A stretch of DNA of 64,000 bases from Botryllus schlosseri (taxonomy: Eukaryota), in contig CM119371.1 in NCBI GenBank assembly GCA_051294905.1, forward strand, positions 4,404,001 to 4,468,000, given 5' to 3'. Each line of letters starts with the position of its first letter. Positions within the stretch are counted from its first letter, which is position 1. The notes under the pieces were generated by a model. It had not been told where the DNA came from. It saw nothing but the letters and a program-made list of their open reading frames with translations, and ran no database searches. Shown here in pieces: positions 1-47,955 of the stretch. Both the position numbers and the translations under genes were made by a program.

Positions 1-212
1 GTGCGGTACACCAATCCGCCATAAGGGTCCCCCCGCTTGGAAAAGCTTTAGGTACAGGACGAGAGCGATTCAGATCGAGGAAAAAAATCATTAGAACGGA
101 GTGAAATAGCATAGCAACCAGGCATGTAATACACACATTGAATAACAATACATGTTCAGTACATACCGAAGGGTTATAAACAGTGAGACACAACAGAGCG
201 GTAAAAAAAAAT

Positions 213-4527: not shown

Positions 4528-5011
4528 GATGTCTGCATATGGTTGCTTATGGTGTTGTGAGCTGGTTGCTTATGGTGTTGTGAGACTAAGTTAAGGCCAA
4601 AAACAGACGCAGGTTTCTTCCTACCTCTCACGAGAGTGTTCGAATTTGGGTCCAACATTACGTTATTTCTAATATCGACTACAAAAGAGAACTCCTCCAG
4701 GAAATCAGCTTCTATTATCGCAATTTTTGTATCAGCTACGTAGAATACAAAATCACACGTGTGCCCGTTTGAGAGTCGGATGTTGCGAGATTTCGTACCA
4801 CCAGTCGGAATAGCGGTGCCGTTCGTTGCATACAGGTTTGGTCCACGGTCTTTGTTACGACGATCTTGCCATGTGCTGGGCATGAGTGAAACGGATGCGC
4901 CTGTATCTACTAAGAAATGAGTTCCAGAAATTTCGTCCTGTACATGTAATAGAGACACATTATGAGAGTTGTGCGAAACAACCAATGGATCTGTACGGCG
5001 TGGACGAAATC
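4524..5011 (-). pseudogene. Gypsy #1 aspartic protease
   Basis: FLVDTGASVS catalytic motif. Confidence 0.9.
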
Positions 5012-5952: not shown

Positions 5953-5963
5953 GTCGAGCTCTG

Positions 5964-5981
5964 ATCACGTCGGGGTCATCA
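5964..5981 (-). promoter_or_regulatory. Primer binding site complementary to tRNA-Trp
   Basis: Minus strand reads TGATGACCCCGACGTGAT, one mismatch from the tRNA-Trp PBS TGGTGACCCCGACGTGAT, 4 nt from the LTR. Confidence 0.85.
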
Positions 5982-5985
5982 AAAG

Positions 5986-6376
5986 TATGGCGGCTATGGC
6001 TCGCTACCTGAGTATGGACTATACGCCGCGTTCCCTCTAGGGTCCGCAACAGAGAGTCGGCGAATACGTTGGCCAGCACTTTATTGCACGACAGAAAACA
6101 TCAACGGACTAACGGTAAAACATCGGATAAAATAACAGCGTCGGTCGTGCAGCGTCAGGTAAAAAGCCAGCAGCGTTTGTCAGGTAAGAAGCGTCGGCAG
6201 CAGTCGTCAGGTATAAAAGCCGGCAGCGTTTGTCAGGTAGAAAGGCCGTACCGAATCGGAGGAATGTCTGCTTAAATAGTCTGAGTAGAGACACGGTCGC
6301 GCACAATGATCAGCAATGATTACTAATTGGGTGATCCGTCGTCGAGAGGGTATGTGCGGTACACCAATCCGCCATA
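5986..6376 (-). repeat. 5' LTR of Gypsy #1 (391 bp)
   Basis: Bounded by the inverted repeat TATGGCGG...CCGCCATA; 6354-6376 is identical to 1-23; the PBS follows immediately. Confidence 0.9.
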
Positions 6377-20640: not shown

Positions 20641-23600
20641 CGCTAAAAACTTTTACACGTGTAAAATTTATTTCATCTATAATATGGGTTATTTCATATA
20701 TTACTGTCAACTATTTATCCGTACTTAGCACACGTGATCGATTAAGCGATAGAGCTGCTGGAGGGGGTGTCGACGACAATTTTTGGCGCAATATGAATGA
20801 TGATGTATCTTCCGGTTTAGTAATCACTTTGTAGCATGTTGTTATTTTTTAACCTTCCGTCAGGATTGTAGGCATACAGGCACACGATTCCGCCTTGGTA
20901 TTTCTGTATGGGGTGCATCATTTTCCTTGACGGTTTTCATTTGTTCGGTGGGACTAAGATTGCACTATTATACATAAAATCCGAAATATACCGGCCTCCT
21001 GAATCGCACCAAGCGTGAATAAAATTTTCAAGTTTGAAATCTCTCAAAGATTTGGGAGCCTATTCGTTGATTCAAATTGCATATTGACGGACGCCAAAAC
21101 ACGCTATAATTCAATTAATATATCGGGGCCGCATAAATATTGTTTATCGGCTCCACGCAACCGTAGGTAGTATATGTGATCGGTGGCGAACCAGCGTTGT
21201 GGCTTATGGGCCCGCAGGTGACCGGCCGCGAAACTCGTGTTGGTGACCCCACCCGTTAGACCCCCCTATCGCTGGTGAGCTGCCTTTTTTCTGGTGACAC
21301 CACCCTTTCAGGCATAGCGCTCGTTGGTGACCTGCCGTGAAAACTCGTGTTGGTGACCCCACCCTTTGCGACCCCCTATCGCTGGTGACCAGCCGCATCG
21401 TTAGTGATACCACGCCTACAGGTATTGGCTGTAGCGATGACCTGTCGTTCTTATGGCTGCGATCGTGAACTAATGTTTATTCAAAACGGTGTGAAATGGT
21501 TTGCTAAATCTAGGAATCGCTCACATGGTAACATTTTGGCAATTAAGTGGTCATAGAGCCGGCGTAGCCGGCGATTTAAACACTAACAATAGCTGCGCTC
21601 GCAAACTATCACTTCAAATAGGTGTGAAATAATTGTAAAATCCTACAATCACTGACAAGATAACACCTCAGACATAGCCATCTCTCGTGACTTGCTGTTA
21701 CAGAGGTAGGAATCACTCACAAGTAATATTTTGGTAATTAGTTTGTCGCGTAACTGGATTTCACGGGCGAGATATCATAGGAATAATAACTATTAAGTAA
21801 TAGCGACGAATAACAGAACCGTCGCAGATGGCGATCCGGAAACCAACAATTTGACACTTTCCGACGATCGCTATGTCAGTGTTTTCACACCTTTGGAATA
21901 GTGGTTGACTTTAGTTGTGTGATAAGAATCATGAGAATATTCAATCAATGTAATAATTTGTCAATCTGAAATGAAACTCACTGCACAACTCGGGTTGATT
22001 CGTATCTGAATGTGTTAACTCGGCGCAACTCTATTCCTTCGAGATATCCTTTAACGCGATCTGTTGATTTGAACGTAACCCGAATATTACTGACTTCGAA
22101 TTTCAGCTGCATCGGCTTATTCACACGCTCCCACACCGCTGTTTCATACCTATAGAATCAATACCAACTATCTCAACAAGAATCAAGAATCACGATTATG
22201 CACATTGCGCATTATACAATCATTGTATTTATTACTGCGAAATCAAACTCTTAACAAAAACACTCATCTTAGCATTTACCAACTCTACCATCACCAGAAA
22301 ATTAAGGTATTGTTGATTGAAAATTCGCGAGTCCTTATTATCAAAAATGTTATAGTACGGGAATAGGAATCCATTCGCGAAATGTACTATAGGTAAATCG
22401 AGATAAACCGAAACGAACTATTTTGACTTTGCCATAGTGTGAATTGAAATAGCTTTGACAAACATGACTACCAACTTTCAACCCAGTTACATTTCGAGAT
22501 TATACACATATTGATTTGAAACAAGTAATGAAACCTTCCAACTCTATTCTCGACCCGGTTTTCCGTTTGTCAAATAGAGTTTCAGTAAATACTATCGCTA
22601 TGGAATCGCGATATTTTAATGTGGTAATACACACAATAGAGTCAATCAATGAAATAATGCCCGTTGTTGTAAACATTTCCAACTTGACAACCGCTTACAC
22701 ATAACGCGATCGAGTTGCAATGCGATGAGTTGAATTGGAATCGGAATATTTCAACCTACTTTGTCACATCGCGATTTGAAGTAGGATTGTCAGACATGAT
22801 CACAAACTTTCCCTCAGTTACATTTCAGATTACTTTATTCACACGATCACCATCTCGCTGTCTTCACACTTACACAACCGCCCATTGTTCCCACTCGCAA
22901 TATATTTCCGAATGAAAATGGTTTGTTACTCTAGGAAAAAACATATTTCCGAACCAAAATGGATTGTTAATCTAGGAAACGGCAACGGGAAGGAACCTCT
23001 TGTGCATAGTATTGCAACAGTGAAGATATTCTGTCACGTGGTGAAACAAGATCGTTGCTCAACTGTGAATGACGTATTGCGAACACCGAGTTGCTGTTAA
23101 AGAGAGAAGAGCCTACAGTAAGACCATTCTGTATGCTTCGATTAAAACCACAACGAAGACCAGTTATGAATGGATTCGAAGCAGTTCAACCTTTGTTGTA
23201 TTTAGTCAATTCGAGCCAATTTTAATACAAGTCTCCAGGTATGACTCACACACTGACACCGTAAACGGAAGTCGATGATTGTGATATAGAATAATAAAAA
23301 TATTTCTCAAGTACGTGTTCAACTAAATCGGAATTTTGATGTTGTAGAAAGTGAATAATTTGATCGAGTTGTGTGTCTGATGAAAGTGAGTGGTTACAAG
23401 TATGTTTTGACGTTAGGGAAAGAAAATTTATTTTCTGTGTCTGACAGTTAGTGACAAAATGAAAATAGATTCGTGGTTTTAATTGGATTGTGATTAAGCT
23501 GTTCAAATGTATGGCTCAACACGAAGACTTTACGCTGAACAACAATTCGACAAAACATATCCTCTGCACAATTTGTCACTGGTGTGTAAAGAGTTAGGAA

Positions 23601-24074
23601 AAATTTTAATACAGTTCCATCTACCATTTGTTTTGTTGTGAGGACAACCATGTGATGACTCAGCACTTTTCGTTAGCAAAGTAGATTGTTTTGTGTGTAA
23701 GATTTAAGGGTCGTGTCGGGAAGCATATGTACTCTCTTGTTGGAGTAACTCGATTATTGCTATGACATTAGCAATTTGGCATATCCTTCAATCGTAGTTG
23801 GTTGATGTCTTACGAAAGATGACGCGATCCCGGTGTAATAAATTTTGCTATCCAAACTTTGATAGATGCCGTGGTGGTGTAGGACTTACGCATGCCGGAT
23901 GTAGGGAAATTAAGTACTTGGCCGGCCGGATAGATGAATCTATACATTATTCGCCATTTATCCACATATATAAGGAATAAATCGCATGTAATGACTGTAT
24001 TGCAACGACAGCAATGTCATTTCACTGCCATTTCTCGCCATTTCTGCCAGTACTATGATATCTCAGAGAAGCGA

Positions 24075-28900: not shown

Positions 28901-30639
28901 CACCCTTTGTATACTTCATTAGATATTGAAGCCTATGTTGTTGTGTTAACGCATATGGCTCTACTAAAGAATTGAAAGCCATTTTAAAATCATAAAAATC
29001 ACTGGCGTTTCCTGTAAAGATGGGAGGTTCCGTGAGGGGTAATAAAGAAGGTTGGGGAACTTGGGCATACATAACCTTGGGCTCCGAATTACTGATATTG
29101 TTTTTAGGAGCAAGGAAACAAGCTTCAGCATTGGCTGGTGTCGAAATAAGAGCAGCGGGTTTAGGTCCCCGTTCATATTTTGGTAACTTAGTAGGTTCAC
29201 TACGGCCCTGCAAACAAGGGCTATCAAAATCAATCAGATCTAGCACCGAGTTAACAGTATTTGAACCCAAAGGTTGCGAACTACCTGGAATGGATGGACA
29301 ATTAAACTGAGGAATGAATTCGATGGCAGTTTCCTGCTTGACTACAGGACTCAGTCTAGTACTAAAAATTGATTGTCGGGTTTCTAGGGACTGAGGAACA
29401 AAAGGAATTTGAACGTCGGTGCGATTCATACCTGAAACATTAACAGTAGGAAGCTCAAAACCAAGCACCTTTCTCTCTGCGCGAGTTTCCTCAAGCGCAG
29501 ATGCGATTTCGAATTGGTCCCTCTGATGCCTCATACTGAGTTCATCGATCTCTCGTTGTCTAATGCGTCTCAAGGTTTCAACCTCGGACTTGTTTTCCCG
29601 TTCGAGTTCTTCTGCTTCGAGCTTTTGCTGTCGAGCAATTTCTTCCCGTCTTGATTTAATCTTTTCAAGCATTTCTTCTTCTTCACGATGATGCCGCAAC
29701 ATGAGTTGCTGTTTTTCCAGAATATGACGTTGTGAGGATGAAGCAGATCTGGCCTCCAGAACCGCTTCTTGTTGCATCAATGTCATACCCACATCTGAGG
29801 TAGACATTGTTGAGCCTGAGCCATGTGATTGAGTAACATGACTTTTTGATTTAATACTCGATCGACTGCCAACCTTTGCCTTTGATCTGGTAGTCATCAT
29901 ATGTAGATTGTCTTTGGTTAGCAATGCACTTTTGGCGCTTCTTTTCACATGACGCGAAACCATGCCAGCAGACACACAACTCGAACTTGTTCTAGTCTTT
30001 GTTTTGTTCAAGTTGTTTTTTGGCTGTGCTGCAGCTCCTATCGCGCCATAAGCTTTGGCTTGCGTTGCTAATTGTTGAATCGGGCCTTCCATATTATCTT
30101 CGGATAACACCAGGGCGTCAATTCCACGTTGATTTGATGCTAGTTGATTGGAGACCGCAACATCTTTCAACAGCTCCATTATGAAATATCCTTTGTCGTT
30201 TAGTGCAACGTTTCGTTTGATGCGATGTGATCATTAAAAACTTGTGTAACCGCAGAAATTTCAGGCCTAATCTGGGTACACGACGTAGCACTGTCAGCTG
30301 TCTTCGCTCCGGTTGAAACTTAAACACGCGTCTTCTTGGGTGAAGTACGGTTTTTAATGATCCAAATTCCCAGCGACTATACAACTGACCAAATAATTTA
30401 TAACAATCCAAATTCTTAATACAAACAAATAATACGAATTAAAATAACATGAAAGCCAAATAGAACCCTAAATACGATAATACGCATCCTAAACTAAACG
30501 ATTTGAGTCAAACAATAATATGCGACCAATACCATGCAGTGCGCCACGTGAAGTGATATATTCGAGGCGCCAAAACCATCATTCATGCGTCATAGAAAGA
30601 ATCATTGGTCCATTGCGAAGGTGGAATTCTGCGGCAACA
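25926..30639 (-). mobile_element. BEL/Pao LTR retrotransposon, internally deleted
   Basis: Apparently identical 395-bp LTRs (25926-26320, 30245-30639), TGT..ACA ends, 5-bp TSD GTGTC, PPT GGGGGTGAGGG. Confidence 0.95.
26631..30179 (-). CDS. BEL/Pao gag-protease-partial integrase polyprotein (1182 aa), lacking RT/RNase H and the integrase DDE core
   Basis: Three Cys/His knuckles (CPQCKQTH..C, CFSC...GH..EC, C...C.GKH..LLH), ALLDGAS protease motif, LRVGGR, HHCC, C-terminal W..GR....PG.D..VR.V...RPITKL. Confidence 0.9.
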   Translation of the reverse strand: MELLKDVAVSNQLASNQRGIDALVLSEDNMEGPIQQLATQAKAYGAIGAAAQPKNNLNKTKTRTSSSCVSAGMVSRHVKRSAKSALLTKDNLHMMTTRSKAKVGSRSSIKSKSHVTQSHGSGSTMSTSDVGMTLMQQEAVLEARSASSSQRHILEKQQLMLRHHREEEEMLEKIKSRREEIARQQKLEAEELERENKSEVETLRRIRQREIDELSMRHQRDQFEIASALEETRAERKVLGFELPTVNVSGMNRTDVQIPFVPQSLETRQSIFSTRLSPVVKQETAIEFIPQFNCPSIPGSSQPLGSNTVNSVLDLIDFDSPCLQGRSEPTKLPKYERGPKPAALISTPANAEACFLAPKNNISNSEPKVMYAQVPQPSLLPLTEPPIFTGNASDFYDFKMAFNSLVEPYALTQQHRLQYLMKYTKGVPHVLIKGCLHADSHSCFDKAWKILNENYGQEHQISRCCLESILGGPRFSENDRDGLAMFWAKLVSCRETLMGTNSLHEIDNIMVIDKVEDRLPEGWRSGWRSIVDNIVNVKREKLTMLDLSNYIRKKSRELETKPKINWSLSNERFVNPKGSKTSFATQMESTTASCCPQCKQTHFLNQCNIFRAMNFEQRHNFVQQNKLCFSCLQAGHFSKECYRKKPCSQAKCFGKHTTLLHPPDNNPSQSHKPIQLIKSEQNSESDKTTSSFASSIQKEAGALLPGLPVKVRVGSGGNIFTTKALLDGASRNSFITHSLLERISAKGRDVSVAVKTLNGVGSHKTETLIDNVEVSAYNGNDWVSLSTLVSTEEIPLGKYEMPLQEDIQDFPEFDGIEIPDVDCDVELLIGFDNRSIHRPREVVDGPADFYAVRTLIGWAVACERSEIKGNGKLPVSCNFTKVSTDSVCEMCSDVIDKVKTEKTCLATVVSDVPTPGIEFMDEAIKKHCNWFKLKKVIAWVLRYKDRLLSKVRGTSGGNESLPAGLLTTDEVLRSEREIIKHEQAKFYAAEMHAIANGQNLRPASTLYRLKPFIENGLLRVGGRIMEAPIAYENQHQIVVPRDSRIASAIFEWHHRLSGHSGREHVLGMVRKKYWIVRPQPKLRKIIYDCVICRKRQRQPESQQMSNLPAKRPKWIDGKCNLKIDDIVLIMDDNLPRNAWLLGRVTQLFPGKDDLVRSVRIKTKNSELERPITKLVLIQSSST

Positions 30640-30883: not shown

Positions 30884-31651
30884 ATGGCTGGTTCTCAGGA
30901 AAAGTATATTCGAGTGCCAATACTCGAAATCCTTCCAAGTTCTCCGGATTCCCTAAAGGTCTTCAATCACTGGGAAAAGATGCTCAACAATTTTATCACT
31001 GCAGTTGAGACTTCGAATACGCCACCTCCTAACTCTGGTGAAAACCCTCCCGCACCTGTCATCGATAAGTTGGCGATCCTTACAGGGTATGTGTCTCCCG
31101 ACGTCTATTCATTGTTCGAACAGCTAGATACCTTCACGGCAGCAATGGACCTGCTTAGATCCAGGTATCGAAAGAAAAAGAACGTCATTTATGCAAGGCA
31201 TCTGCTGGCCATTGCGAAACAAGATCCAGGCAAATCTATCACCGAGTTCTCACAGGATTTGCTCATGCTTGCTCGTGATTGTTCGTTCGAGAATGTATCG
31301 GCGGACCAGCACAGACAAGAAGCCGTACGGGATTCACTAATTACTGGTCTACACTCGTCAGCTATTCGTCTGCGCTTACTCGAACATGACGATTTGACGC
31401 TGGAAAAGGCCATTAAAATTGCAGAGTGTCTGGAACAGGCACAGAAGTTTTCTAGTTCCTACGAGCCGCAGAGTCAACCTGTTCTGAATGTCAACAGCGA
31501 TCAATCTGCTATTAGTTCCAATTTATCGGCGTTCAAGAGCGATGTGCCTGCCGCGAATATATTGAAGAAGAAGTGCTTTTTCTGCGGAGAAATTCACGAA
31601 TGAACACGGAAATCCTGTCCCGCGAAAGATGTTTCATGCTTTCATTGTGGC
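30884..31651 (+). pseudogene. gag: Gypsy #2 gag (in-frame TGA at 31601-31603 inside the zinc-knuckle region)
   Basis: ARH.L...KQ..G.S and RD..I.GL motifs; CFFCG..H..*..CPA...CFHCG..GHYAKVC; same frame as pol. Confidence 0.9.
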
Positions 31652-33150
31652 GTGCGGGGACACTATGCGAAAGTGTGCAGATTGCGTATCGGAGGAGAAC
31701 CTGCTGCCTCGTTGAACTCGTTAGTCTCTGGTTCGGCACTTGCTGGAATACCCGACTCTCTTCGGTATTCTTGCCTCGACGTCTCCGTTGCGCAATATAA
31801 CGTGAAGGCTTTGATAGATTCCGGTGCTTATGAATGCTATATCAGTGAATCCCTATCGAAATTCCTCGGTCTTCGCCCGTTTGGTCGCAAGTACTCCATC
31901 ACACTTGCAGAGAAGAACTCCGTAACAACTGTTCTCGGGTGCATTGAAGCTTCACTCGAGATACCGGGGTGTAATTACGGCAAAGTCAAATTCAGAGTCG
32001 TTAAAGATCTCATTGCTGATGTGATCCTGGGATTGGAATTCATGAAGCAGCATGGCAAAGTTGTATTTGAATTTGGCGGACCATCGAAGGATCTCATCAT
32101 TTCGAATGGTTTACATTGCGCCGTAGCAGCTGCGAGAGTATCCGCACCTCCTCAAATATTCAAATTCGTCGACCCTGAAGTGCGACCCGTAGCTGTCAAA
32201 TCAAGAAATTATAGTTCAGATGACCGGAAATTCATTGCGAGTGAGTTGTCGAAACTGCTGCGTGACGGTGTAGTAGAACGTTCCGTGTCTCCCTGGCGAG
32301 CCCAGGTCTTGGTAACGAAAGATTTTCGGCACAAGAAGAGGTTAGTAATCGATTACTCACAGACCATCAATAGGTTTACTCCTCTGGGTGCATACCCTTT
32401 GCCCAAAATAGAGAACATCGTGAACGACGTGGCGAAAGGAATGGTATATAGCACCATTGATTTAAAATCTGCTTACCACCAAGTACCGCTATCTGTATCC
32501 GATAGGCCATATACTGCATTTGAAGCTGGTGGATCGTTGTATCAATTTTGTCGTCTCCCTTTCGGGATAACCAATGGTGTAGCTGCGTTTCAGCGGTTCA
32601 TTGATAAATTCATTGCTGAGCACAAACTAAATGGTACTGTTGCCTACCTCGATAACGTCACGATTTATGGGGAAAACCAGAAAGACCATGATGAAAGGCT
32701 TCAAGCCTTCATGTCTGCTGCGACAAATTGGGGATTGACTCTCAATAAAGATAAATGTCTGTTGTCCGTGTCAAAACTCTCATTACTTGGACATTTAATA
32801 TCACATAACACAATTCAGCCAGATCCTGATCATCTTAAACCATTACTCGACATGCCAGTTCCTAACGACAATCGCAGTTTGAAACGTTTCATGGGGATGA
32901 TGGCTTACTATTCAAAGTGGATCCCCTCTTTCTCGGGGAAAATCAAACCATTATGTCAAAATTGCGAATTCCCGTTGATTGGCATTCAGCTGGAAGCCAT
33001 TAATACTCTGAAAACGGACTTATTACGGGCCTGTCTAAGTTGTATTTATGACGATGAGCCTTTCCAAGTCGAATGTGATGCTTCAGACCACGACATCGGG
33101 GCCATTCTGAGCCAACGGGGCAGACCAGTCGCCTTTATGTCCCGAACGTT
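31652..33150 (+). pseudogene. pol: Gypsy #2 pol, 5' part (protease, RT, start of RNase H)
   Basis: LIDSGA, RLVIDYS, IDLKSAYHQ, LPFG, YLDN and ECDASD motifs. Confidence 0.95.
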
Positions 33151-36100
33151 AGTAGTTATGTAGATCGGTCGTGAGGTGGCAGGGGTTCTTATGGGCCCGC
33201 TGGTGACTCGCCGCGAAACTCGTGTTGGTGATTCGCCCTTTTCGACCCCCCCTTCCGCTGGTGATTCGCCATGTGTTCTTATGGGTGCGGCCGTGATTCG
33301 CCTTTTTTGCTATAGGCTGCGTCGGTGACTCGCCGCGAAAACTCGTGTTGGTGACTCGCCTTTTTTACTATAGGCGGTGGCGGTGATTCGCCTGTCATGT
33401 ATTCTTACGCGGTCTCTGGTGACTCGCCATGTGTTCTTATGGGTGCGGTCGTGATTCGCCCTTTCAGGTATAGCTCGTGGCGGTGACTCGCCGTGAAAAC
33501 TCGTGGTCGTGACTCGCCTTTTTTGCTATAGGCGGTGGCGGTGATTCGCCTGTCATGTATTCTTCAGATCGGGTTATTCGCACCTTGTATACCGCTGTTT
33601 CGCACCTACAGAATAGTCTGCTGTTCACAGTCGTGACTTCACCGCGATAGCACAATATTCGCAGGTAATATTTCCGCAATAAGTTTGTCACAGAACCGTT
33701 GCACAATATCCGCGTTCACAAACTAACACTCCAAAAAGGTGTGAAATATTGGTAAAATCCCGCGATCGCTCACAAGATAATACCTAAGACATAACCATCG
33801 CTTGCGACTCGCTGTTACATACATGCCGATCGTTGACAATGTAATATTTTGGTAATTGGTTTGCCACAGAGCCGGCGTAGACGGTGATTCAAATATCAAC
33901 AATAGCCGCGTTCACAAACCAACACTTCAAAAACGTGTGAAATAGGTTACAAATCCCACGATCGCTCACAAGATAACACCAAAGACATCACCATTTCTCG
34001 CGTCTTGTCATTACATACATCCCAATCGCTACAGTGTAATGTGTCGATGGTTGTTACTATCAAGTAATAAGTAATGAATAACAGTACCAGCGCAGACCGT
34101 GATTCGAAAACCAACAATTTGACACTTGCCCGCGATCGCTATATGTTTCATGCCTCTCGAATAGTGGGTGACTTTAGTTGCGTGATAAGATCCATGAAAA
34201 TATTCAATCAATGTGTTAGTTTGTCAACTTGAAATGTAACTCACTACACAGATCAAGTTGAATCGTATTTGAATGTATTGACTCGACCCAACTCAAATCC
34301 TTTGACAAATCCTATTAACGCAATCTGTTGAATCGAACGTAACCTGAATATTACTGACACCAACATTCACCCACATCGGATCATTCACACATTCCACGCC
34401 GCTGTTTTAACAGTTATAGAATCAATACCAACTATCTCTAACCCGATAATATTCAATCATTTTGGTAATTTACCAACTTTAAATCCATTCGCGGATGTAC
34501 TAAAGGTAAATCCAGATAATCCAAAATGAAATATTTGGACTTTGACATAGTCTGAATTGAAATAGATTGACAAACATGACTTACAACTTTCAACCCAGTC
34601 ATATTTAGAGATTATACACACATTGATTCGAAACAAGTAATGAAACATTACAACTCTATTCGCGATCCGGCTTTTCAATTGCCAAAGCGACATTTTAACA
34701 TCTTACCATACTCAAAAGAATTATTCACAACATTAACAAGTGTTAAATATCTAGTTTTCACTTACTTGATTATATCACTACAACTCACAAACTTGAATTA
34801 ATTCATCCTGGTTGTATTCATATGACCGATAATTTTTTATTCAACTGTAAAGGTCGTTACTATTCTGTAAAACAAAGTATTTACTAATCGGTCCATATAC
34901 GACTTGACATAAACCTATTACATTTTGAATATACGATATTTGAATGTCTGAACAATAACTGAGAAATAATTATCACAAGTGAATCCATATACGACAGCGT
35001 AAAAGATATTGGAATGTCAGCAACTCTTCACGGTCGTAGTTACTACCACATTAACTAATTTACCCGACCAACTCGTCATGATCATTCCTGAAATCAACAC
35101 AAACATGCCCCTGTCTTCAGTTACCACAAAACAGCATCAAGTTTTAAATCCACTTGTAGCTGATGGATTATTTGATTGCATCGATAGAGAATATTATTGA
35201 ACTCGTCGGTATTGTTACTACAACAAATTTTCGCTTACACCGACTGCGAAAGTTAATATCGAATGGTAAGTCTTGACCGCATATTTGTTGAACACAGACA
35301 TGACAAAGAACATTACCGAGATTTTATAAACTAGTCATATTACTTTTCACATCTATCAATATCAGAATACAAGTAATCAAACTTTTTGTTAAATGTAACA
35401 TAGCACTTTTGGAATCGGATTCGTTATAGTCATACAAATTGTATTAAATCCAACATCAAAACAAAAGGAATTTTTTTAGTTTATTGAAATCAAATCATTC
35501 GTCTTCGACTTGTGCTTTTCTAGATTGCACGCAACAATTCGTTACGAATGAGCTGTAACCAAAGTTAAGAATTCTTTGTGTCCACAGATATAGAAGATGA
35601 ATATAGCTAACACAATCACGAATCGACGTTTCAGAGTATTTCACGGATGTAATAAACTTGTTAGTGTGGCCTATCTAAAAGTATGCATGCGTTCGATTTC
35701 CATACCGACTGTTGCGATGTTTAGGATTCGCTTACAATGACCAAGAGTGAGGATTTAACATCAATGTCGTTACTGGAGGTATTCACAACAGAGAATCGAA
35801 ACATTACACAGTGTGAAAATATATCTTTGATATCAAAGCACTATCCCAAGTACACGATTAATACTCAACTCCGTTCACACTTTCTATAGAACGTGCTAAA
35901 TGTAAAATATCACGAGGTTGCACTCTAAGACTTTGATCATTACAAAAGTAAATTGAATATGTTTGCTCGACGCATTCAATTCAACTAGAAATGTCTAGTG
36001 CACAACAATCGTAATATTAAGGAAGTACTTGCTACACTGTAATTCACTAAACGTGTTTTGCATTGTTGTTCATTTGTAGCATTGATTGAAATTGTTTTTT

Positions 36101-39100
36101 GAACCCTCAAATAATAATTCCCGACATGAAACCAAACCGCTGAAAGTCGTTACCAACACAAAGAAACACTTTGTACGATGTTTGCCAAATGTACCCTATG
36201 GTTAGGTGTACTAGAATTATTTGTGTAACACATACACCGACAATGTAATCGAAAATTTTTCCGTTGTCATTCGCTAAAGTAAATGTCATCACAATACTCT
36301 GTCACTAAAGATCTTACTTGTATCTGATTGAATCACCGATAATTAACTCGCTAAATCAAACCATAAGGAAATTTCACTCACTCATCAGATATGAAACAGC
36401 GTCGCTTAATCGGTGTAGATCGTTTTTCTAAATGCAAATCATACCTGACCAACAGAAAACAATTTTCACTCACCTTGTAATGAAACCAAGTGTAGTGGAC
36501 CTTCGTTCAATATTTTGTTTGTGTCAAATACTTTGCAATAAACACACTGGAGTGGTCGAGCTTTACATCAGCAGACTGTAATCTGTAAATCAAGCTTACA
36601 TCCGACTTGTAACTGTATCGTTTACCTAACCGAGTTGTATGCACAGTTTGATATTTTTTGTTATTTGGTAATTGCTGAATATACTACTTCGAAATACTCC
36701 CTTGAACGTAATTTCCATCATCGTAATAATCGAAGTACATTTGTGTCGAATTCGTAACAGCCGACTATGACATGATAAATTTTTGACAAGTTATGCTTGG
36801 AAGATTGGTTGTATATCACGAAAAATAATTACCGCTCATATTCATACTGTTATCCATTGTTCGGTATTTTTAAACGAGTAAAATTTATTACTTGAGTTAC
36901 TCCGCTTAATGCAAATGTAAACACAACCGTCTTTCAACATCGCAAAGACATCGATACAAAGTATACAATCAAACGCAACAAGTTTTACTTTTGTAGGTTG
37001 TGTATGGTTATCCTGCATAACTCATTTCTTACCAAAGCCATATGAAATATATTCATGTTACACGAAAATATTCACTCATGCTACAAACCTGTACAATGAT
37101 TGGTGGTGCTTTCAAACTGTTTCGATACCTCAAGAACTTTATTGTCTGAATGGTTGTTCATGTATCACAATAATCAAGTAATTCAACACAGAACTAGTAT
37201 TAACAGAAACACCAAAGTTGTTTACACAAAAGTTTGTATGTGTACAGTATACGAATACCATGTGTAAGTCCAGCACAATTGTGGACGAGTTTAGTTAACA
37301 CAATTTACGACACCGAGGTCGCGTCATCTTTCGTAAGACAACAAACCAAGGCTTCAGGATATGTCCATGTCATAGCAATGAATCAGCTACTCCAACAACA
37401 GAGTGCATATGTTTTCTAGTTACGGTGCTTACATCTTACACACAAATCAATCTACTTTGCTAACGAAAAGTGGTGAGTCATCATATGGTTATCCTCACTA
37501 GTAAAACATACTATCATACAAAATGGTCGTTATAGTTTGCACACCAACGGTACATCGTACAAGTAACAATTCTCGAGAATCCAGTTATTCAAAAAACGTG
37601 AAAGTATTTCTACACCAAGTCGTTATGTTGACGAAAGCGTATATTGTAATATCATGATCAATTTGCATTCGTTGGTCACAAACTGTCACTACTCCAAATA
37701 ATTCTTTTTCACTCAAACACAAACGCACACTTGTCACCATTCGTTTTCATCAAGTACGAGTTCAAGAAACTTACTACGACATGAATTTTTATTTTTATGT
37801 TGTGTAAATAGGTAATAATTAATTCAAGTAACACTATATCAACATCATCGAGTTGTGCTAATAGATTTACATGTGGTCTTGTGGTTTTCATCGGGACATA
37901 CAGCACGAACTATCTGTAGACTCCTCTCTGTTGTACAGCTACTCGGTAATCGAAATGCATTAACATGTAAACAACGATCTTGTTTCGTCACACCAAAAAA
38001 TATGTTCACTGTCGCGATACTCCGCACAAGACGTGCATAGCCTTTGCACACTCGTAATAGTATACCAACGTCAAGCGATAACGTTTAACAAGACCAACGA
38101 CACTGACTCCACGACGTTTACCTATGTAAAATTACCACTTTCACTTGCCAGTCCATCGTTTACCTGACTAAACATATTATTTTCCTTTGGAGATCTGACG
38201 TTTACCCAGAGTAAGAAACCATTTTCACTTGTAAATATATTTTTTCCTCGGCTAACAAACCTTTTTCACTCGGAAATCTATTTTTTCTCTGGTTAACAAA
38301 CCTTTTTCGCTTGGAAATATATTTTTTCTCTGGTTAACAAACCTTTTTCACTTGGAAATATATATTTTTCCCCGGGTAACAAACCTTTTTCCCTGAGCAA
38401 CAAACCATTTTAACTTGGTGGTCCGTCGTTTAGTCGAGTAAAAATATCATTTTCCTTTGGAGATCCGGCGTTTACCCAGTGTAACTATACATTTTCGCTT
38501 GGAAAAATACTTTTACCTAGAGTAACTAATCATTTTCTCCTGGGTAACAATCCCTTTCCGTCTGGAAACTATCATTTAACTGAGTACCAATACCGTTTTC
38601 ACTTGGAAATACATTTTTTCCCTGGGTAACAATACCATTTTCGTTTTGAAAACTGACAACCACACCGGCCAATTTGATGTTTTTGTATATTGTTACAACG
38701 AAGAGTGACGGAAATATACACAGACTACCGGTTTTAGAGTATACCCCATCGGTCGTATCACATCAATATCATCGGTTAACCACATACAATATACTCTTGT
38801 ACACCGAAATGCACGCTTTGGAAAATTGGACAATAGGCTGCGATAGTTCTGCGATGTCCGGGTTCGTGCTTTGGATTTTCCAGAGTCAAAATGTCTGAAT
38901 AAAACACCTCCTCGACGACGGTTGGTATGTGGATAACGGTGTTCGGAAAACGGTTGGATTTATGTCACCCATCACGATAACAACTCCAGGTCGAGTTTTC
39001 CTCCCGCATGTTTACTATATTGTGTCTTTATTGGTCAATGTATGTCTCGACATTCAGTTTGAAATCGGAAACCCTGATAAAGTATGTAACCGGATCCGGA

Positions 39101-39375
39101 TATCAACTCTGAATCGATAAACCAATGAACAATATTCAAAGTAAACATGTTACACCCTGTGTTTCCACGAAAAAATACCATCCAGACATACGTCGCGCTT
39201 GTTTGCCCGCACCAGTATACGCGCGCGCAAATGGAGGTGTGTGACATTGCATGCAATGTGTTGGTATACAAACATCGATCCACAGACATTATCATAGCCG
39301 GTAGTTTTGATGTAGATCGAATGTCACCCGATAACAATGTCATACCAATAAGCCACATTGCAATGACTCTGAGTC
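33151..39375 (+). repeat. Left arm of the 6225-bp inverted repeat
   Basis: Mirrored ORF track; paired coordinates sum to 79677 throughout; about six substitutions seen by eye. Confidence 0.98.
36200..38050 (+). pseudogene. Heavily decayed protein-primed family B DNA polymerase (pPolB); mirror copy ~41630-43480 on the minus strand
   Basis: Manual translation gives motif ghosts in the expected order: VVDLRSIFC..L..HTGV; SEWL......IQH...TVYEYH..QHNC; ASGYVHV; YGYPH; HVVLWFSSGHTAR...LSVVQLLGNR...SCFVT. Confidence 0.65.
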
Positions 39376-39400
39376 AATCTGAAGCATGACATACGGACAC
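38780..39400 (+). pseudogene. Possible decayed Polinton rve integrase
   Basis: QYTLVH..ARF, GNPDKV...LNR and YKHRST resemble YTLHKP..RF, GRKP.KLQTD..EFLNR and YHRSI. Confidence 0.4.
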
Positions 39401-39578
39401 ACAAACATAGAAACCGTAACATGGGTATTCGCACGACGGTGAAAGTGAACTATACAGCATATACCAATAGAGTGTTCACAGTCAAATATGCGAACCGTGC
39501 ACAATCATATACCCAGGTTTTTGCTGGATATGTACGAAACCAATAAATCGATACATTTCTTTTCTCTGGACATCAATA

Positions 39579-40250
39579 ATACAATCGCCATTCAAATGCA
39601 TCGCTCGAATGTGAGGTTCGTCGGGTGTAAAATCCATGTCCAATAAAACCAAAGTGTGCCTTCCGTGTTTTATTATTTCCACCGACACTACTTGTCTGTG
39701 TCGTAACACTATGGTGCGGGGAGTTGAAAACGGTGGATTGTGAAACGGATTGACATGACCAACAGAATCGACGTCAATAGTCTTGTGGTCAAAATGTTAC
39801 CGATATGACGAGCGCAACCTCGATCTTTTATGGCGATGACCGTTTCGAAATGTCGCTGGACGAACTGGACCCATACGAAGGTGTGTTTTATGATTGCGTG
39901 TGAAATCACGACGCAGTGTTCTATTGCGGTGTACGATTGCAGTCTTCATTCCACAGAAACACACCTTATTGGATCACAGTATCAGTCCGAGATTTTCAGA
40001 ATCACTGTTCACGATATTTATCTGGAGTCGTTATGTGGGAGTAGCGACGTCCATGCATCGTGACTGAAAGACTGATCGCAATCATTTCGAGCACCCATAC
40101 TTCGATAGTTCACATTGGTCAAATGCTGCAGTCTCAGCAGAAAACTTCGGTGTCGACAACACGACGGATATCGACCGATGTATCCAATTGGTCTGGGTGA
40201 TCTGTCCGGAGATAGGGTCATGACTATCTTGTAATGTTACAACGCGATAA
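39579..40250 (+). pseudogene. Possible decayed Polinton packaging (A32-like) ATPase in the spacer
   Basis: IQSPFKCIARM*GSSGVKS resembles HPFT..I.GPSGSGKT; RNLDLYGDD resembles Walker B RNL.ILDD. Confidence 0.45.
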
Positions 40251-40301
40251 AACCATCGAGTAAATCAGTGAACGGTATCGAAATATCGATGTAATAGCGC
40301 G

Positions 40302-43300
40302 GACTCAGAGTCATTGCAATGTGGCTTATTGGTATGACATTGTTATCGGGTGACATTCGATCTACATCAAAACTACCGGCTATGATAATGTCTGTGGATC
40401 GATGTTTGTATACCAACACATTGCATGCAATGTCACACACCTCCATTTGCGCGCGCGTATACTGGTGCGGGCAAACAAGCGCGACGTATGTCTGGATGGT
40501 ATTTTTTCGTGGAAACACAGGGTGTAACATGTTTACTTTGAATATTGTTCATTGGTTTATCGATTCAGAGTTGATATCCGGATCCGGTTACATACTTTAT
40601 CAGGGTTTCCGATTTCAAACTGAATGTCGAGACATACATTGACCAATAAAGACACAATATAGTAAACATGCGGGAGGAAAACTCGACCTGGAGTTGTTAT
40701 CGTGATGGGTGACATAAATCCAACCGTTTTCCGAACACCGTTATCCACATACCAACCGTCGTCGAGGAGGTGTTTTATTCAGACATTTTGACTCTGGAAA
40801 ATCCAAAGCACGAACCCGGACATCGCAGAACTATCGCAGCCTATTGTCCAATTTTCCAAAGCGTGCATTTCAGTGTACAAGAGTATATTGTATGTGGTTA
40901 ACCGATGATATTGATGTGATACGACCGATGGGGTATACTCTAAAACCGGTAGTCTGTGTATATTTCCGTCACTCTTCGTTGTAACAATATACAAAAATAT
41001 CAAATTGGCCGGTGTGGTTGTCAGTTTTCAAAACGAAAATGGTATTGTTACCCAGGGAAAAAATGTATTTCCAAGTGAAAACGGTATTGGTACTCAGTTA
41101 AATGATAGTTTCCAGACGGAAAGGGATTGTTACCCAGGAGAAAATGATTAGTTACTCTAGGTAAAAGTATTTTTCCAAGCGAAAATGTATAGTTACACTG
41201 GGTAAACGCCGGATCTCCAAAGGAAAATGATATTTTTACTCGACTAAACGACGGACCACCAAGTTAAAATGGTTTGTTGCTCAGGGAAAAAGGTTTGTTA
41301 CCCGGGGAAAAATATATATTTCCAAGTGAAAAAGGTTTGTTAACCAGAGAAAAAATATATTTCCAAGCGAAAAAGGTTTGTTAACCAGAGAAAAAATAGA
41401 TTTCCGAGTGAAAAAGGTTTGTTAGCCGAGGAAAAAATATATTTACAAGTGAAAATGGTTTCTTACTCTGGGTAAACGTCAGATCTCCAAAGGAAAATAA
41501 TATGTTTAGTCAGGTAAACGATGGACTGGCAAGTGAAAGTGGTAATTTTACATAGGTAAACGTCGTGGAGTCAGTGTCGTTGGTCTTGTTAAACGTTATC
41601 GCTTGACGTTGGTATACTATTACGAGTGTGCAAAGGCTATGCACGTCTTGTGCGGAGTATCGCGACAGTGAACATATTTTTTGGTGTGACGAAACAAGAT
41701 CGTTGTTTACATGTTAATGCATTTCGATTACCGAGTAGCTGTACAACAGAGAGGAGTCTACAGATAGTTCGTGCTGTATGTCCCGATGAAAACCACAAGA
41801 CCACATGTAAATCTATTAGCACAACTCGATGATGTTGATATAGTGTTACTTGAATTAATTATTACCTATTTACACAACATAAAAATAAAAATTCATGTCG
41901 TAGTAAGTTTCTTGAACTCGTACTTGATGAAAACGAATGGTGACAAGTGTGCGTTTGTGTTTGAGTGAAAAAGAATTATTTGGAGTAGTGACAGTTTGTG
42001 ACCAACGAATGCAAATTGATCATGATATTACAATATACGCTTTCGTCAACATAACGACTTGGTGTAGAAATACTTTCACGTTTTTTGAATAACTGGATTC
42101 TCGAGAATTGTTACTTGTACGATGTACCGTTGGTGTGCAAACTATAACGACCATTTTGTATGATAGTATGTTTTACTAGTGAGGATAACCATATGATGAC
42201 TCACCACTTTTCGTTAGCAAAGTAGATTGATTTGTGTGTAAGATGTAAGCACCGTAACTAGAAAACATATGCACTCTGTTGTTGGAGTAGCTGATTCATT
42301 GCTATGACATGGACATATCCTGAAGCCTTGGTTTGTTGTCTTACGAAAGATGACGCGACCTCGGTGTCGTAAATTGTGTTAACTAAACTCGTCCACAATT
42401 GTGCTGGACTTACACATGGTATTCGTATACTGTACACATACAAACTTTTGTGTAAACAACTTTGGTGTTTCTGTTAATACTAGTTCTGTGTTGAATTACT
42501 TGATTATTGTGATACATGAACAACCATTCAGACAATAAAGTTCTTGAGGTATCGAAACAGTTTGAAAGCACCACCAATCATTGTACAGGTTTGTAGCATG
42601 AGTGAATATTTTCGTGTAACATGAATATATTTCATATGGCTTTGGTAAGAAATGAGTTATGCAGGATAACCATACACAACCTACAAAAGTAAAACTTGTT
42701 GCGTTTGATTGTATACTTTGTATCGATGTCTTTGCGATGTTGAAAGACGGTTGTGTTTACATTTGCATTAAGCGGAGTAACTCAAGTAATAAATTTTACT
42801 CGTTTAAAAATACCGAACAATGGATAACAGTATGAATATGAGCGGTAATTATTTTTCGTGATATACAACCAATCTTCCAAGCATAACTTGTCAAAAATTT
42901 ATCATGTCATAGTCGGCTGTTACGAATTCGACACAAATGTACTTCGATTATTACGATGATGGAAATTACGTTCAAGGGAGTATTTCGAAGTAGTATATTC
43001 AGCAATTACCAAATAACAAAAAATATCAAACTGTGCATACAACTCGGTTAGGTAAACGATACAGTTACAAGTCGGATGTAAGCTTGATTTACAGATTACA
43101 GTCTGCTGATGTAAAGCTCGACCACTCCAGTGTGTTTATTGCAAAGTATTTGACACAAACAAAATATTGAACGAAGGTCCACTACACTTGGTTTCATTAC
43201 AAGGTGAGTGAAAATTGTTTTCTGTTGGTCAGGTATGATTTGCATTTAGAAAAACGATCTACACCGATTAAGCGACGCTGTTTCATATCTGATGAGTGAG

Positions 43301-46300
43301 TGAAATTTCCTTATGGTTTGATTTAGCGAGTTAATTATCGGTGATTCAATCAGATACAAGTAAGATCTTTAGTGACAGAGTATTGTGATGACATTTACTT
43401 TAGCGAATGACAACGGAAAAATTTTCGATTACATTGTCGGTGTATGTGTTACACAAATAATTCTAGTACACCTAACCATAGGGTACATTTGGCAAACATC
43501 GTACAAAGTGTTTCTTTGTGTTGGTAACGACTTTCAGCGGTTTGGTTTCATGTCGGGAATTATTATTTGAGGGTTCAAAAAACAATTTCAATCAATGCTA
43601 CAAATGAACAACAATGCAAAACACGTTTAGTGAATTACAGTGTAGCAAGTACTTCCTTAATATTACGATTGTTGTGCACTAGACATTTCTAGTTGAATTG
43701 AATGCGTCGAGCAAACATATTCAATTTACTTTTGTAATGATCAAAGTCTTAGAGTGCAACCTCGTGATATTTTACATTTAGCACGTTCTATAGAAAGTGT
43801 GAACGGAGTTGAGTATTAATCGTGTACTTGGGATAGTGCTTTGATATCAAAGATATACTTTCACACTGTGTAATGTTTCGATTCTCTGTTGTGAATACCT
43901 CCAGTAACGACATTGATGTTAAATCCTCACTCTTGGTCATTGTAAGCGAATCCTAAACATCGCAACAGTCGGTATGGAAATCGAACGCATGCATACTTTT
44001 AGATAGGCCACACTAACAAGTTTATTACATCCGTGAAATACTCTGAAACGTCGATTCGTGATTGTGTTAGCTATATTCATCTTCTATATCTGTGGACACA
44101 AAGAATTCTTAACTTTGGTTACAGCTCATTCGTAACGAATTGTTGCGTGCAATCTAGAAAAGCACAAGTCGAAGACGAATGATTTGATTTCAATAAACTA
44201 AAAAAATTCCTTTTGTTTTGATGTTGGATTTAATACAATTTGTATGACTATAACGAATCCGATTCCAAAAGTGCTATGTTACATTTAACAAAAAGTTTGA
44301 TTACTTGTATTCTGATATTGATAGATGTGAAAAGTAATATGACTAGTTTATAAAATCTCGGTAATGTTCTTTGTCATGTCTGTGTTCAACAAATATGCGG
44401 TCAAGACTTACCATTCGATATTAACTTTCGCAGTCGGTGTAAGCGAAAATTTGTTGTAGTAACAATACCGACGAGTTCAATAATATTCTCTATCGATGCA
44501 ATCAAATAATCCATCAGCTACAAGTGGATTTAAAACTTGATGCTGTTTTGTGGTAACTGAAGACAGGGGCATGTTTGTGTTGATTTCAGGAATGATCATG
44601 ACGAGTTGGTCGGGTAAATTAGTTAATGTGGTAGTAACTACGACCGTGAAGAGTTGCTGACATTCCAATATCTTTTACGCTGTCGTATATGGATTCACTT
44701 GTGATAATTATTTCTCAGTTATTGTTCAGACATTCAAATATCGTATATTCAAAATGTAATAGGTTTATGTCAAGTCGTATATGGACCGATTAGTAAATAC
44801 TTTGTTTTACAGAATAGTAACGACCTTTACAGTTGAATAAAAAATTATCGGTCATATGAATACAACCAGGATGAATTAATTCAAGTTTGTGAGTTGTAGT
44901 GATATAATCAAGTAAGAGAAAACTAGATATTTAACACTTGTTAATGTTGTGAATAATTCTTTTGAGTATGGTAAGATGTTAAAATGTCGCTTTGGCAATT
45001 GAAAAGCCGGATCGCGAATAGAGTTGTAATGTTTCATTACTTGTTTCGAATCAATGTGTGTATAATCTCTAAATATGACTGGGTTGAAAGTTGTTAGTCA
45101 TGTTTGTCAATCTATTTCAATTCAGACTATGTCAAAGTCCAAATATTTCATTTTGGATTATCTGGATTTACCTTTAGTACATCCGCGAATGGATTTAAAG
45201 TTGGTAAATTACCAAAATGATTGAATATTATCGGGTTAGAGATAGTTGGTATTGATTCTATAACTGTTAAAACAGCGGCGTGGAATGTGTGAATGATCCG
45301 ATGTGGGTGAATGTTGGTGTCAGTAATATTCAGGTTACGTTCGATTCAACAGATTGCGTTAATAGGATTTGTCAAAGGATTTGAGTTGGGTCGAGTCAAT
45401 ACATTCAAATACGATTCAACTTGATCTGTGTAGTGAGTTACATTTCAAGTTGACAAACTAACACATTGATTGAATATTTTCATGGATCTTATCACGCAAC
45501 TAAAGTCACCCACTATTCGAGAGGCATGAAACATATAGCGATCGCGGGCAAGTGTCAAATTGTTGGTTTTCGAATCACGGTCTGCGCTGGTACTGTTATT
45601 CATTACTTATTACTTGATAGTAACAACCATCGACACATTACACTGTAGCGATTGGGATGTATGTAATGACAAGACGCGAGAAATGGTGATGTCTTTGGTG
45701 TTATCTTGTGAGCGATCGTGGGATTTGTAACCTATTTCACACGTTTTTGAAGTGTTGGTTTGTGAACGCGGCTATTGTTGATATTTGAATCACCGTCTAC
45801 GCCGGCTCTGTGGCAAACCAATTACCAAAATATTACATTGTCAACGATCGGCATGTATGTAACAGCGAGTCGCAAGCGATGGTTATGTCTTAGGTATTAT
45901 CTTGTGAGCGATCGCGGGATTTTACCAATATTTCACACCTTTTTGGAGTGTTAGTTTGTGAACGCGGATATTGTGCAACGGTTCTGTGACAAACTTATTG
46001 CGGAAATATTACCTGCGAATATTGTGCTATCGCGGTGAAGTCACGACTGTGAACAGCAGACTATTCTGTAGGGGCGAAACAGCGGTATACAAGGTGCGAA
46101 TAACCCGATCTGAAGAATACATGACAGGCGAATCACCGCCACCGCCTATAGCAAAAAAGGCGAGTCACGACCACGAGTTTTCACGGCGAGTCACCGCCAC
46201 GAGCTATACCTGAAAGGGCGAATCACGACCGCACCCATAAGAACACATGGCGAGTCACCAGAGACCGCGTAAGAATACATGACAGGCGAATCACCGCCAC

Positions 46301-46526
46301 CGCCTATAGTAAAAAAGGCGAGTCACCAACACGAGTTTTCGCGGCGAGTCACCGACGCAGCCTATAGCAAAAAAGGCGAATCACGGCCGCACCCATAAGA
46401 ACACATGGCGAATCACCAGCGGAAGGGGGGGTCGAAAAGGGCGAATCACCAACACGAGTTTCGCGGCGAGTCACCAGCGGGCCCATAAGAACCCCTGCCA
46501 CCTCACGACCGATCTACATAACTACT
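40302..46526 (-). repeat. Right arm of the 6225-bp inverted repeat
   Basis: Reverse complement of 33151-39375. Confidence 0.98.
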
Positions 46527-47955
46527 AACGTTGTCTAAAAGCGAGATGAAATATCCGGCTGTTGAGAAAGAGGCGTTGGCAATTATAGAATCGGTCAGAA
46601 AATGGGGTTATCTGTTGATCAGAAACGAGTTCCAATTGATCACAGACCAGAAGGCGCTTTCATTTATTTTCCGAAAAAGTCACCCGAGCAAAATCAAGAA
46701 CAGCAAGTTATCTATATGGAAATTAGAACTAAGCTCGTTGAAATATGAAATTATTCATCGTCCTGGTAAGGAACACGTGGGCGCTGATGCACTTTCTCGT
46801 TTGTGTTCTATTTCGTCGTCGTCTGGAATGTCGTTGCAACAGGTTCATGAAGCCCTGAGTCACCCCGGAGTCCGTCGACTACATCACTTTGTTCGAGCGA
46901 AAAATCTACCATTCTCCATGGAGGACGTCAAAAAGATCTGTTCTAATTGTTCGGTTTGCGCTGAATTTAAACCGAGGTTTTTCAAATCCAACCAAGTGAA
47001 TCATCTCGTCAAAGCCACTAGACCCTGGGAACGTATAAGCATTGATTTTAAAGGTCCTGTTTCCGGACCAAAGCGGTTTATACTCGTTATAATCGATGAA
47101 TATAGCAGATTTCCATTCGCTTATGCATGTCGTGACATGACCTCTGCTACTGTAATCAATTGCCTGTCTTCATTGTTTTCTCTTGTTGGACTCCCAGAAT
47201 ACGTCCACAGTGATCGGGGAACTTCATTCCTATCGAAAGACGTAACGGCCTTCCTGACGCGTAAAGGTGTTGCGACAAGCAAATCAACACCCTATCATCC
47301 AACGGGTAATGCTCAGTGTGAACGTCTGAACCAAACCCTCTGGAAGGCAATTAAACTCCGCTTAGCTACTCAAAGGTTGCCTGAACGGTTGTGGGAGCAA
47401 GTCCTACCCGATGCCTTACATTCGATAAGGTCTCTACTCTGCACGTCTACTAACTGTTGCCCTCATGACCGATTTTTCAGCTTCGAGCGCAGATCCATGC
47501 TGGGGGTGTCGATACCTGATTGGCTACTAAACGGTGGTACTGTGCTGCTACGGAACTTTGTTCGCAACAAGAGTGATCCCGAAGTGGTTAGAGTAGAGCT
47601 TCTAGATGCTAACCCGAAATATGCATTAATTCGTCACAGGAACGGGACGGAATCAACTGTATCAGTAAAGGATCTAGCCCCGTGCCCGCGTGAAGAGAAC
47701 GATAATGGGCTTGATTTCCGTTCCATCGAGCCTGCAGTCGACTTGCGTTCTGCCGAAATCAACAACGACCAGAATGGTTTATTATCTCAAAACTCCTCGG
47801 ATCATCATTCAAACTCTCCTGTCGATACTCAAAACGACTCCCACGATACCTCAATCGGTCGAAACGATTCCGATGCAACTGTTGATGAGCCACCGATCCG
47901 AAGGTCATCAAGAATCAGACGAGCGCCCGATTGGTATGGTGACCGCACAACATGA
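46527..47955 (+). pseudogene. pol: Gypsy #2 pol, 3' part (RNase H, integrase)
   Basis: EKEALAI, TDQK, ADALSR, HHCC, IDFKGP, HSDRG and ERLN motifs; joins in frame (FMSRT-LSKSE) once the insertion is removed. Confidence 0.95.

Follow-up and report, generated by a model that had tools for sequence, protein, structure and literature searches.

The window, by which the whole analysed stretch of 64,000 nucleotides from Botryllus schlosseri is meant (contig CM119371.1, positions 4,404,001 to 4,468,000 of the forward strand), contains at 33151-46526 an element of 13,376 bp without genes, built of two inverted arms around a spacer of 926 bp. The inverted repeat is 6231 nt long, pairing 33145-39375 with 40302-46532, and the arms make up 93% of the element. 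The 5' start of the element reads AGTAGTTATG and its 3' end CATAACTACT, the termini being AGTAGT...ACTACT, and each flank carries a perfect 6-bp target-site duplication, AACGTT. An earlier note on this DNA had taken the stretch 36200-38050 for the 'ghost' of a pPolB gene, extremely decayed inside a very young insertion. This flagged stretch is present twice, with its mirror at 41627-43477, because it lies within the mirrored arms.

The insertion splits the pol open reading frame (ORF) of a Gypsy retroelement within RNase H, the Pfam profile RT_RNaseH being matched at positions 3-40 upstream and 39-103 downstream of the element. Both Gypsy paralogues retrieved (L047 and L048) were uninterrupted at this site, with 100% identity over 251 nt upstream and 99.3-99.5% over 600 nt downstream. 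Because the two paralogues read through with one AACGTT, the insertion, its exact ends and the 6-bp duplication are established. The Gypsy pol gene is young, and the insertion into it is young as well. The arms differ from each other at 6 positions over the 6231 nt, none of these inside 36200-38050; together with the perfect AACGTT and the empty site holding a single copy of it, this confirms the description of arms and duplication as nearly pristine. Rfam gave no match at gathering thresholds on 33000-46700. One bulk RNA run, of which about 6% was read, placed 236 reads on 7.5 kb (32900-40400), on both strands, 228 of the 236 being partial matches only, too few to bear on expression; among the sequencing runs, no RNA run was listed as containing the sequence.

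The genome searched comprises 495 Mb in 219 contigs, and its retroelements are of the animal type. For the flagged region of 1851 nt, 40 genomic matches were scored, with identities of 95-100%; most of them form inverted pairs separated by 2.4-5.1 kb. The 21-mer of the terminus occurred 190 times forward and 198 times reverse (reversed control 0), and a second variant of the terminus 55 and 56 times. The copies compared were 11 palindromic ones (that of the window and ten more, on 6 contigs) and two shorter, non-palindromic relatives of about 7 kb, hereafter the monomers. All 11 palindromic copies had AGTAGT ends, and the 6-bp direct duplication flanking each of them was perfect; their arms were 5.2-7.3 kb long and 99.3-99.96% identical within the copy.

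The affinity of the family is indicated by its ends. A terminus pair 28 kb apart (contig C4:12049600-12079000; L041-L043) consisted of a palindromic element, E1, with a nested element of 14,932 bp, E2. The latter has terminal inverted repeats (TIRs) of 557 bp (97.8% identical), the duplication TATGCC and AGTAGT...ACTACT ends, and it encodes pPolB in two overlapping frames (774 and 489 aa), an A32/AAA-type ATPase and an rve integrase with a chromodomain. Positions 1-583 of E2 aligned with positions 7-519 of the window element at E 1e-81, with 70% identity overall and blocks at 85-94%. The likeness is confined to the termini, and no homology was found between E2 and the interior of the window element at word size 7. 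The autonomous Polintons of this genome measure 15-17 kb and have only about 0.5 kb of terminal sequence in common with the palindromic family; pairs containing pPolB with the 21-mer terminus of the window type also exist. The autonomous elements would supply replication and integration in trans via the common termini.

No Pfam family was found at E<=10 in the six read-through frames of arm and spacer, with stops written as X, and none of the 68 genome-wide matches to the pPolB of E2 (E<=1e-10) fell in the window. It is very probable that 33151-46526 is a copy of a high-copy, gene-less and non-autonomous family of the Polinton/Maverick type, and that 36200-38050 and its mirror are plain non-coding sequence with no recognisable polymerase remnant. 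In structure it amounts to one giant palindrome, of non-autonomous Polinton type. That such a family spreads as several kb of non-coding DNA, as had been proposed earlier, was borne out, the ends being of Polinton type. The element is unusual in being wholly non-coding and yet of about helper length, almost entirely palindromic and present in hundreds of copies, with arms evolving in concert. The coordinates of the features are collected in Table 1.

Table 1. Features of the palindromic element, its insertion site and a relative in the window.
Feature	Position	Strand	Basis or remark
Target-site duplication AACGTT, left copy	33145..33150	.	Empty-site paralogues with single AACGTT
Left arm, begins AGTAGT	33151..39375	+	6231-nt inverted repeat; no Pfam family in any frame
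Terminal region in common with autonomous Polinton E2 (TIR homology), with 158-nt tandem units	33151..33663	+	Alignment
Flagged 'ghost pPolB' region, non-coding arm sequence	36200..38050	+	No pPolB signal
21/41-nt tandem repeat array near inner arm end	38134..38642	+	
Single-copy spacer (loop), 926 bp	39376..40301	.	Either orientation among other copies
Right arm, mirror of left arm; mirror of flagged region at 41627-43477	40302..46526	-	
Target-site duplication AACGTT, right copy	46527..46532	.	
Upstream half of split Gypsy pol ORF (protease, reverse transcriptase, start of RNase H)	31604..33163	+	Pfam RVT_1 1.7e-26
Downstream half of split Gypsy pol ORF (remaining RNase H, integrase)	46522..47955	+	Pfam rve 7.7e-17
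Older, internally deleted family relative	21203..23708	+	Pieces 74-90% identical to arm segments; inverted-repeat pairs I3, I10, I13, I16-I18

Concerted arms and origin of the palindrome

The flagged region included 191 variable sites among the 22 arms, and at 183 of these both arms agreed in all 11 copies. The two arms of one copy differed by 0-2 mismatches, whereas different copies differed by 0.8-5.6%. This concertedness is biological, since polishing across the whole family cannot yield copy-specific variants that both arms have in common. The arms may be re-made identical in each round of replication, through a hairpin or panhandle intermediate of a protein-primed linear replicon; alternatively, they may be homogenised in place by gene conversion. 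As an account of the arm identity only, ongoing gene conversion at each chromosomal locus, with no re-making at transposition, is quite possible. The arms were at least 99.3% identical in all 11 copies, whatever their divergence from other copies, and those of the older E1 were 99.93% identical although E2, with its 97.8% identical TIRs, sits inside one of them. A mild argument against gene conversion is the survival of insertions confined to a single arm, namely E2 within E1 and one of 1.4 kb in copy C3a; furthermore, the E2 TIR is repeat-rich, so that its divergence of 2.2% may not measure age, and the E1 locus is structurally odd. If the arms are instead re-made identical each round, arm divergence could date the insertions of such elements.

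Along the arm, the flagged region was the best-conserved part, the segment 35551-37950 differing by 1-2% among the eight closer copies. The outer 1.5 kb of the arm (33151-34650) showed inter-copy differences of 10-30% with many gaps, being repeat-rich and aligning poorly; this divergence could be due to fast turnover of tandem repeats, exchange of ends between lineages, or an alignment artefact.

The two monomers, L044 and L045, are non-palindromic terminus pairs with TIRs of 170-359 bp (97-98% identical). The target-site duplication was perfect in one of them and matched at 4 of 6 positions in the other. Positions 94-6736 of L045 are collinear with positions 7-6195 of the window element, in blocks of about 70-91% identity of which the longest spans 3.5 kb at 84%, and a short right TIR follows this arm-collinear part. 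Both monomers lacked coding signal, and the interior of the spacer had no match in either of the two. Because the monomers are collinear with one arm, the 13-kb form is an inverted dimer of a unit of about 7 kb.

Three types of centre were distinguished among the palindromic copies. Most copies, including that of the window, have the 926-nt loop, which occurs in either orientation. Copy C2 turns about 75 nt earlier at a GTATAC palindrome, its loop of about 29 nt being a continuation of the arm. In copy C10b the arms span the arm end, a homologue of the spacer and about 205 nt of inverse arm; past this stretch follow about 210 unique nt and then a 75-nt loop. The fold-back thus took place at three or more different centres. 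The palindrome probably originated from the monomer, and more than once, by copying that folded (snapped) back at short inverted repeats within the unit.

One weak protein match was observed in a monomer: L045 1690-1803, on the minus strand, resembled the C-terminus of the last ORF (188 aa) of E2 over 39 aa (44% identity, E 0.006, uncorrected for 24 comparisons). The match lies at the geometrically expected sub-terminal place and may represent a protein fossil of a gene other than pPolB.

The supposed polymerase remnant

The earlier note was right in describing 36200-38050 as full of stops. Also the quoted peptide strings, SEWL..IQH..TVYEYH, GYVHV and HVV.....TAR...LLGNR, said to lie in pPolB order, exist on the plus strand, spread over two different frames between about 37140 and 37950; no pPolB ancestry was detected for them. 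Among 15 pPolB sequences (those of this genome and 11 homologues) the strings SEWL, Y[ED]YH, TVYE, GY[VIL]H[VIL], HVV and LLGN[RK] were found in none, and IQH, TAR and LGNR each in one or two.

The genome-wide scan with PF03175 produced nine weak candidates, none of them in the window. This profile is weak for the lineage, scoring 14.9 bits on the pPolB of E2 itself, and therefore a lineage-specific pPolB profile was built from 13 sequences, two from this genome and 11 homologues (P0001-P0011; 7 of the 11 annotated with PF03175). Applied to the autonomous copy, the resulting hidden Markov model (HMM) gave 931 and 578 bits. On stop-to-stop fragments of the palindromic element its best score was 2.7 bits, with 20 shuffles reaching up to 2.5. 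The tblastn search of 12 Polinton proteins of this genome against arm and spacer had a best E of 0.26, the best values of 20 shuffles ranging from 0.025 to 1.2. With tblastx, interior high-scoring segment pairs reached at most 27 bits, their E-values being inflated through linkage to the TIR matches. In two further protein searches, phmmer matched a pPolB-like ORF of locus L003 to the PDB sequences by chance only (E 0.07), and the genome search with PF00770 (adenain) gave no match, its controls being equally silent.

The statistics of the sequence gave the same picture. ORF lengths corresponded to the expectation from dinucleotide shuffles (p 0.25-0.57). The 186 variable sites used for codon periodicity among the 11 copies were split 61/68/57 modulo 3 (p=0.61), and one of the 20 indels among the copies was a multiple of three. 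With Pfam, tblastn, the lineage HMM, peptide strings, ORF lengths and codon periodicity all at chance level, the identification as a ghost pPolB was not upheld, and since it fails, the flagged region is not to be counted as a protein fossil. The related proposal that coding loss predates this locus was supported: all 11 palindromic copies and both monomers are non-coding, and codon periodicity was absent.

It is very improbable that 36200-38050 is a pPolB which decayed during long unconstrained propagation and is now past the reach of similarity search. The distance of the region from the terminus matches that of pPolB in autonomous copies, which is a positional coincidence only, and the three best HMM fragments, noise-level as they are, all lie on the plus strand at 37100-37700. 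These fragments nevertheless scored 1.4-2.7 bits, with shuffles reaching 2.5, and they are non-collinear, matching HMM positions 137-176, 1212-1227 and 1016-1052. Besides the absence of Pfam families and the noise level of tblastn and tblastx, the peptides quoted do not correspond to pPolB motifs, the ORFs are no longer than expected by chance, and the older 7-kb relatives are no closer to pPolB than the window element is.

Several points weigh against regarding the element as a Polinton derivative with plain non-coding arms. Measured from the terminus, the flagged region is at 3.05-4.9 kb and the start of pPolB in autonomous copies at 3.4-4.4 kb. The detection limit of the protein tests is uncalibrated, and they would miss a gene that has diverged by more than about 80%. 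The comparison at the DNA level covers one autonomous copy, E2, which carries the other terminus variant. Mobilisation of the family in trans by a Polinton partner is inferred, from the common ends and the equal length of the duplication only. The sequences analysed represent 13 of several hundred family members. Lastly, E1 has no direct 6-bp duplication at its flanks, which are mutual inverted copies over 518 nt or more (99.93%), and therefore at least one palindrome either lies within a larger structure (an inverted or segmental duplication) or is misassembled.

Relation to known elements and length distribution

Published Mavericks have a 6-bp duplication, (AGT)2//(ACT)2 or (AG)3...(CT)3 ends, a length of 12.7-24.6 kb and TIRs of 46-1,447 bp (PMC8097293). 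The window element agrees with this description in its 6-bp duplication, (AGT)2...(ACT)2 ends, terminal inverted repeats and length, and its ends are homologous to those of an element of the same genome with pPolB, rve integrase and ATPase. It differs in being gene-less and in the length of its inverted repeats, 6.2 kb (5.2-7.3 kb in the family) versus the published 46-1,447 bp. All Polintons encode pDNAP and integrase, as stated in PMC5499653. Because neither pPolB nor integrase is present in the window element, it is a non-autonomous derivative and not a Polinton proper. The literature makes only brief mention of non-autonomous Polintons; Tlr1, for instance, is 'sometimes viewed as' such an element (PMC5499653). 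Butterfly polintons are described as autonomous elements with TIRs of about 2 kb carrying hexon and adenain genes (bioRxiv 10.1101/2025.02.07.637071); they resemble the window element in showing that TIRs can grow well past a few hundred bp and come to include duplicated internal sequence, and differ in that their TIRs bear genes whereas the non-coding repeats form almost the whole window element. The full-text literature search found no palindromic or dimeric family of gene-less or non-autonomous Polintons, Repbase and Dfam being outside its scope and prior annotation being possible there.

Typical of Foldback elements (FB) are inverted arms of great length that contain tandem sub-repeats and enclose little middle sequence; these elements have 9-bp duplications and depend on a MuDR-related partner. 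The window family shares with them arms that form nearly the whole element, tandem sub-repeats near the ends and a small, variable centre. In contrast to Foldback, its duplication is 6 bp, its ends are homologous to a Polinton TIR and its arms are several-fold longer; membership in Foldback was rejected on the 6-bp duplication and the Polinton-type partner. That the family belongs to, or was moved by, another DNA-transposon superfamily, either Foldback-type or another group with 6-bp duplications, its Polinton-like ends being coincidental or secondary, is highly improbable. The long arms with tandem sub-repeats would fit such an origin, but the ends are homologous over about 0.5 kb to a TIR belonging to an element of the same genome with pPolB and integrase (E 1e-81), Foldback duplications are 9 bp long, and all 11 copies have a 6-bp duplication together with the (AGT)2 ends published for Mavericks (PMC8097293).

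An artefact of assembly or polishing, affecting either the palindrome itself or the near-identity of the arms, is hardly credible. Inverted repeats that are long and perfect are known to cause failures in long-read data, and one related locus (E1) has inverted flanks. However, 11 loci on 6 contigs agree in architecture and each carries a direct 6-bp duplication of its own, copy-specific substitutions occur in both arms (183 of 191 sites), beyond what family-wide polishing explains, and the host Gypsy ORF is exactly restored across the element.

At least 58 pPolB places were present genome-wide, with 78-100% amino acid identity to that of E2 and open frames in two classes of about 1300 and about 1135 aa; this genome thus harbours many and diverse Polintons. 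A second pPolB, 100% identical, lies 21 kb downstream of E1/E2 in the same orientation. The nearest Atlas clusters of a 432-aa ORF of E2 were double jelly-roll (DJR)-like (score 0.98), Pfam PF21738 being found on 14-30% of the cluster members, and the ORF is, as a lead only, a candidate for a DJR-like capsid protein.

Lengths were obtained by pairing adjacent plus and minus termini of one contig, at distances below 40 kb, among the first 100 listed for each of the two terminus patterns (200 of 499); the exact 21-mer criterion favours young copies, and long pairs may contain nested insertions. The two patterns gave 41 and 42 pairs, and 18 and 16 singles. The pairs were divided according to 58 pPolB places, those scored of 326 candidates. 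The ten pairs with a pPolB place measured 14.7, 14.9, 15.4, 15.8, 15.8, 16.5, 16.5, 17.4 and 20.9 kb, the tenth being a nested composite of 28.2 kb. The 73 pairs without one had medians of 13.5 and 14.0 kb; 54 of them fell at 12-16 kb and six were shorter than 10 kb. In this the family differs from miniature inverted-repeat transposable elements (MITEs), which are typically shorter than 1 kb, whereas like them it has only the termini in common with the autonomous partner, which it outnumbers. Dimers of different lineages measured 12.4 kb (C2), 13.3-14.0 kb (window type) and 14.7 kb (C1b and C10b). Relative to the 15.8-kb median of the pairs containing pPolB, monomers of about 7 kb correspond to about 44% and inverted dimers of about 13.5 kb to about 85%; against a helper of 15-17 kb, dimers of 12-15 kb reach about 80-95%.

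The suggestion that genome length matters, for example for capsid packaging, was not refuted and gains circumstantial support, because structurally different lineages all lie near helper length and the monomers at about 44% of it. Packaging itself is unproven, six shorter pairs exist, and common descent alone could explain the clustering. Helper-dependent adenovirus vectors are reported to undergo rearrangement when the genome is shorter than about 75% of the wild type, and a vector of half size was packaged as direct and inverted dimers (PMC4189039). By analogy, the family might tentatively be viewed, though we consider this rather doubtful, as a natural counterpart of such 'gutless' adenovirus genomes, a satellite of about 7 kb successful only as inverted dimers of 12-15 kb, with a helper capsid or protein-primed replication that would accept only DNA of near-genome length. 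Both are gene-less with only terminal cis elements, and the vectors, linear genomes, depend on a helper that has a protein-primed polymerase and a jelly-roll capsid. The vectors are, in contrast, a laboratory system with demonstrated encapsidation, whereas the window family is chromosomal, known from sequence and lengths, and seen only as inverted dimers. If the analogy were true, the hairpin-capable structure would also account for identical, re-made arms, and the length distribution of a dead-looking repeat would be genomic evidence for animal Polintons spreading as packaged virions. Polinton virions have had no direct observation so far, according to PMC8097293. If dimer length reflects a packaging window, the family would be a purely genomic test of virion formation by Polintons.

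Further observations in the window and elsewhere

The older relative at 21203-23708 passes abruptly from outer left-arm to inner right-arm sequence. Two other members on one contig (C2:20634793-20650377 and C2:20718146-20733730) are each exactly 15,585 bp long and lie 83 kb apart, which suggests a segmental duplication carrying an element. In sequencing runs under three other organism labels, contigs held 43-45% of the words sampled from 32900-40400, and pieces in two of these runs were 99-100% identical to the arm; the near-identical pieces could come from close relatives, mislabelled samples or horizontal spread.

Adjoining the Gypsy element, a 1199-aa open frame on the minus strand at 26631-30230 of the window has DUF1759, DUF5641 and Integrase_H2C2, corresponding to a BEL/Pao-type retroelement. 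Near the start of the window, an inverted repeat of 246 nt (1085-1330 and 1470-1715) is 98% complementary with 139 nt between its halves and may be a small foldback or MITE-like element.

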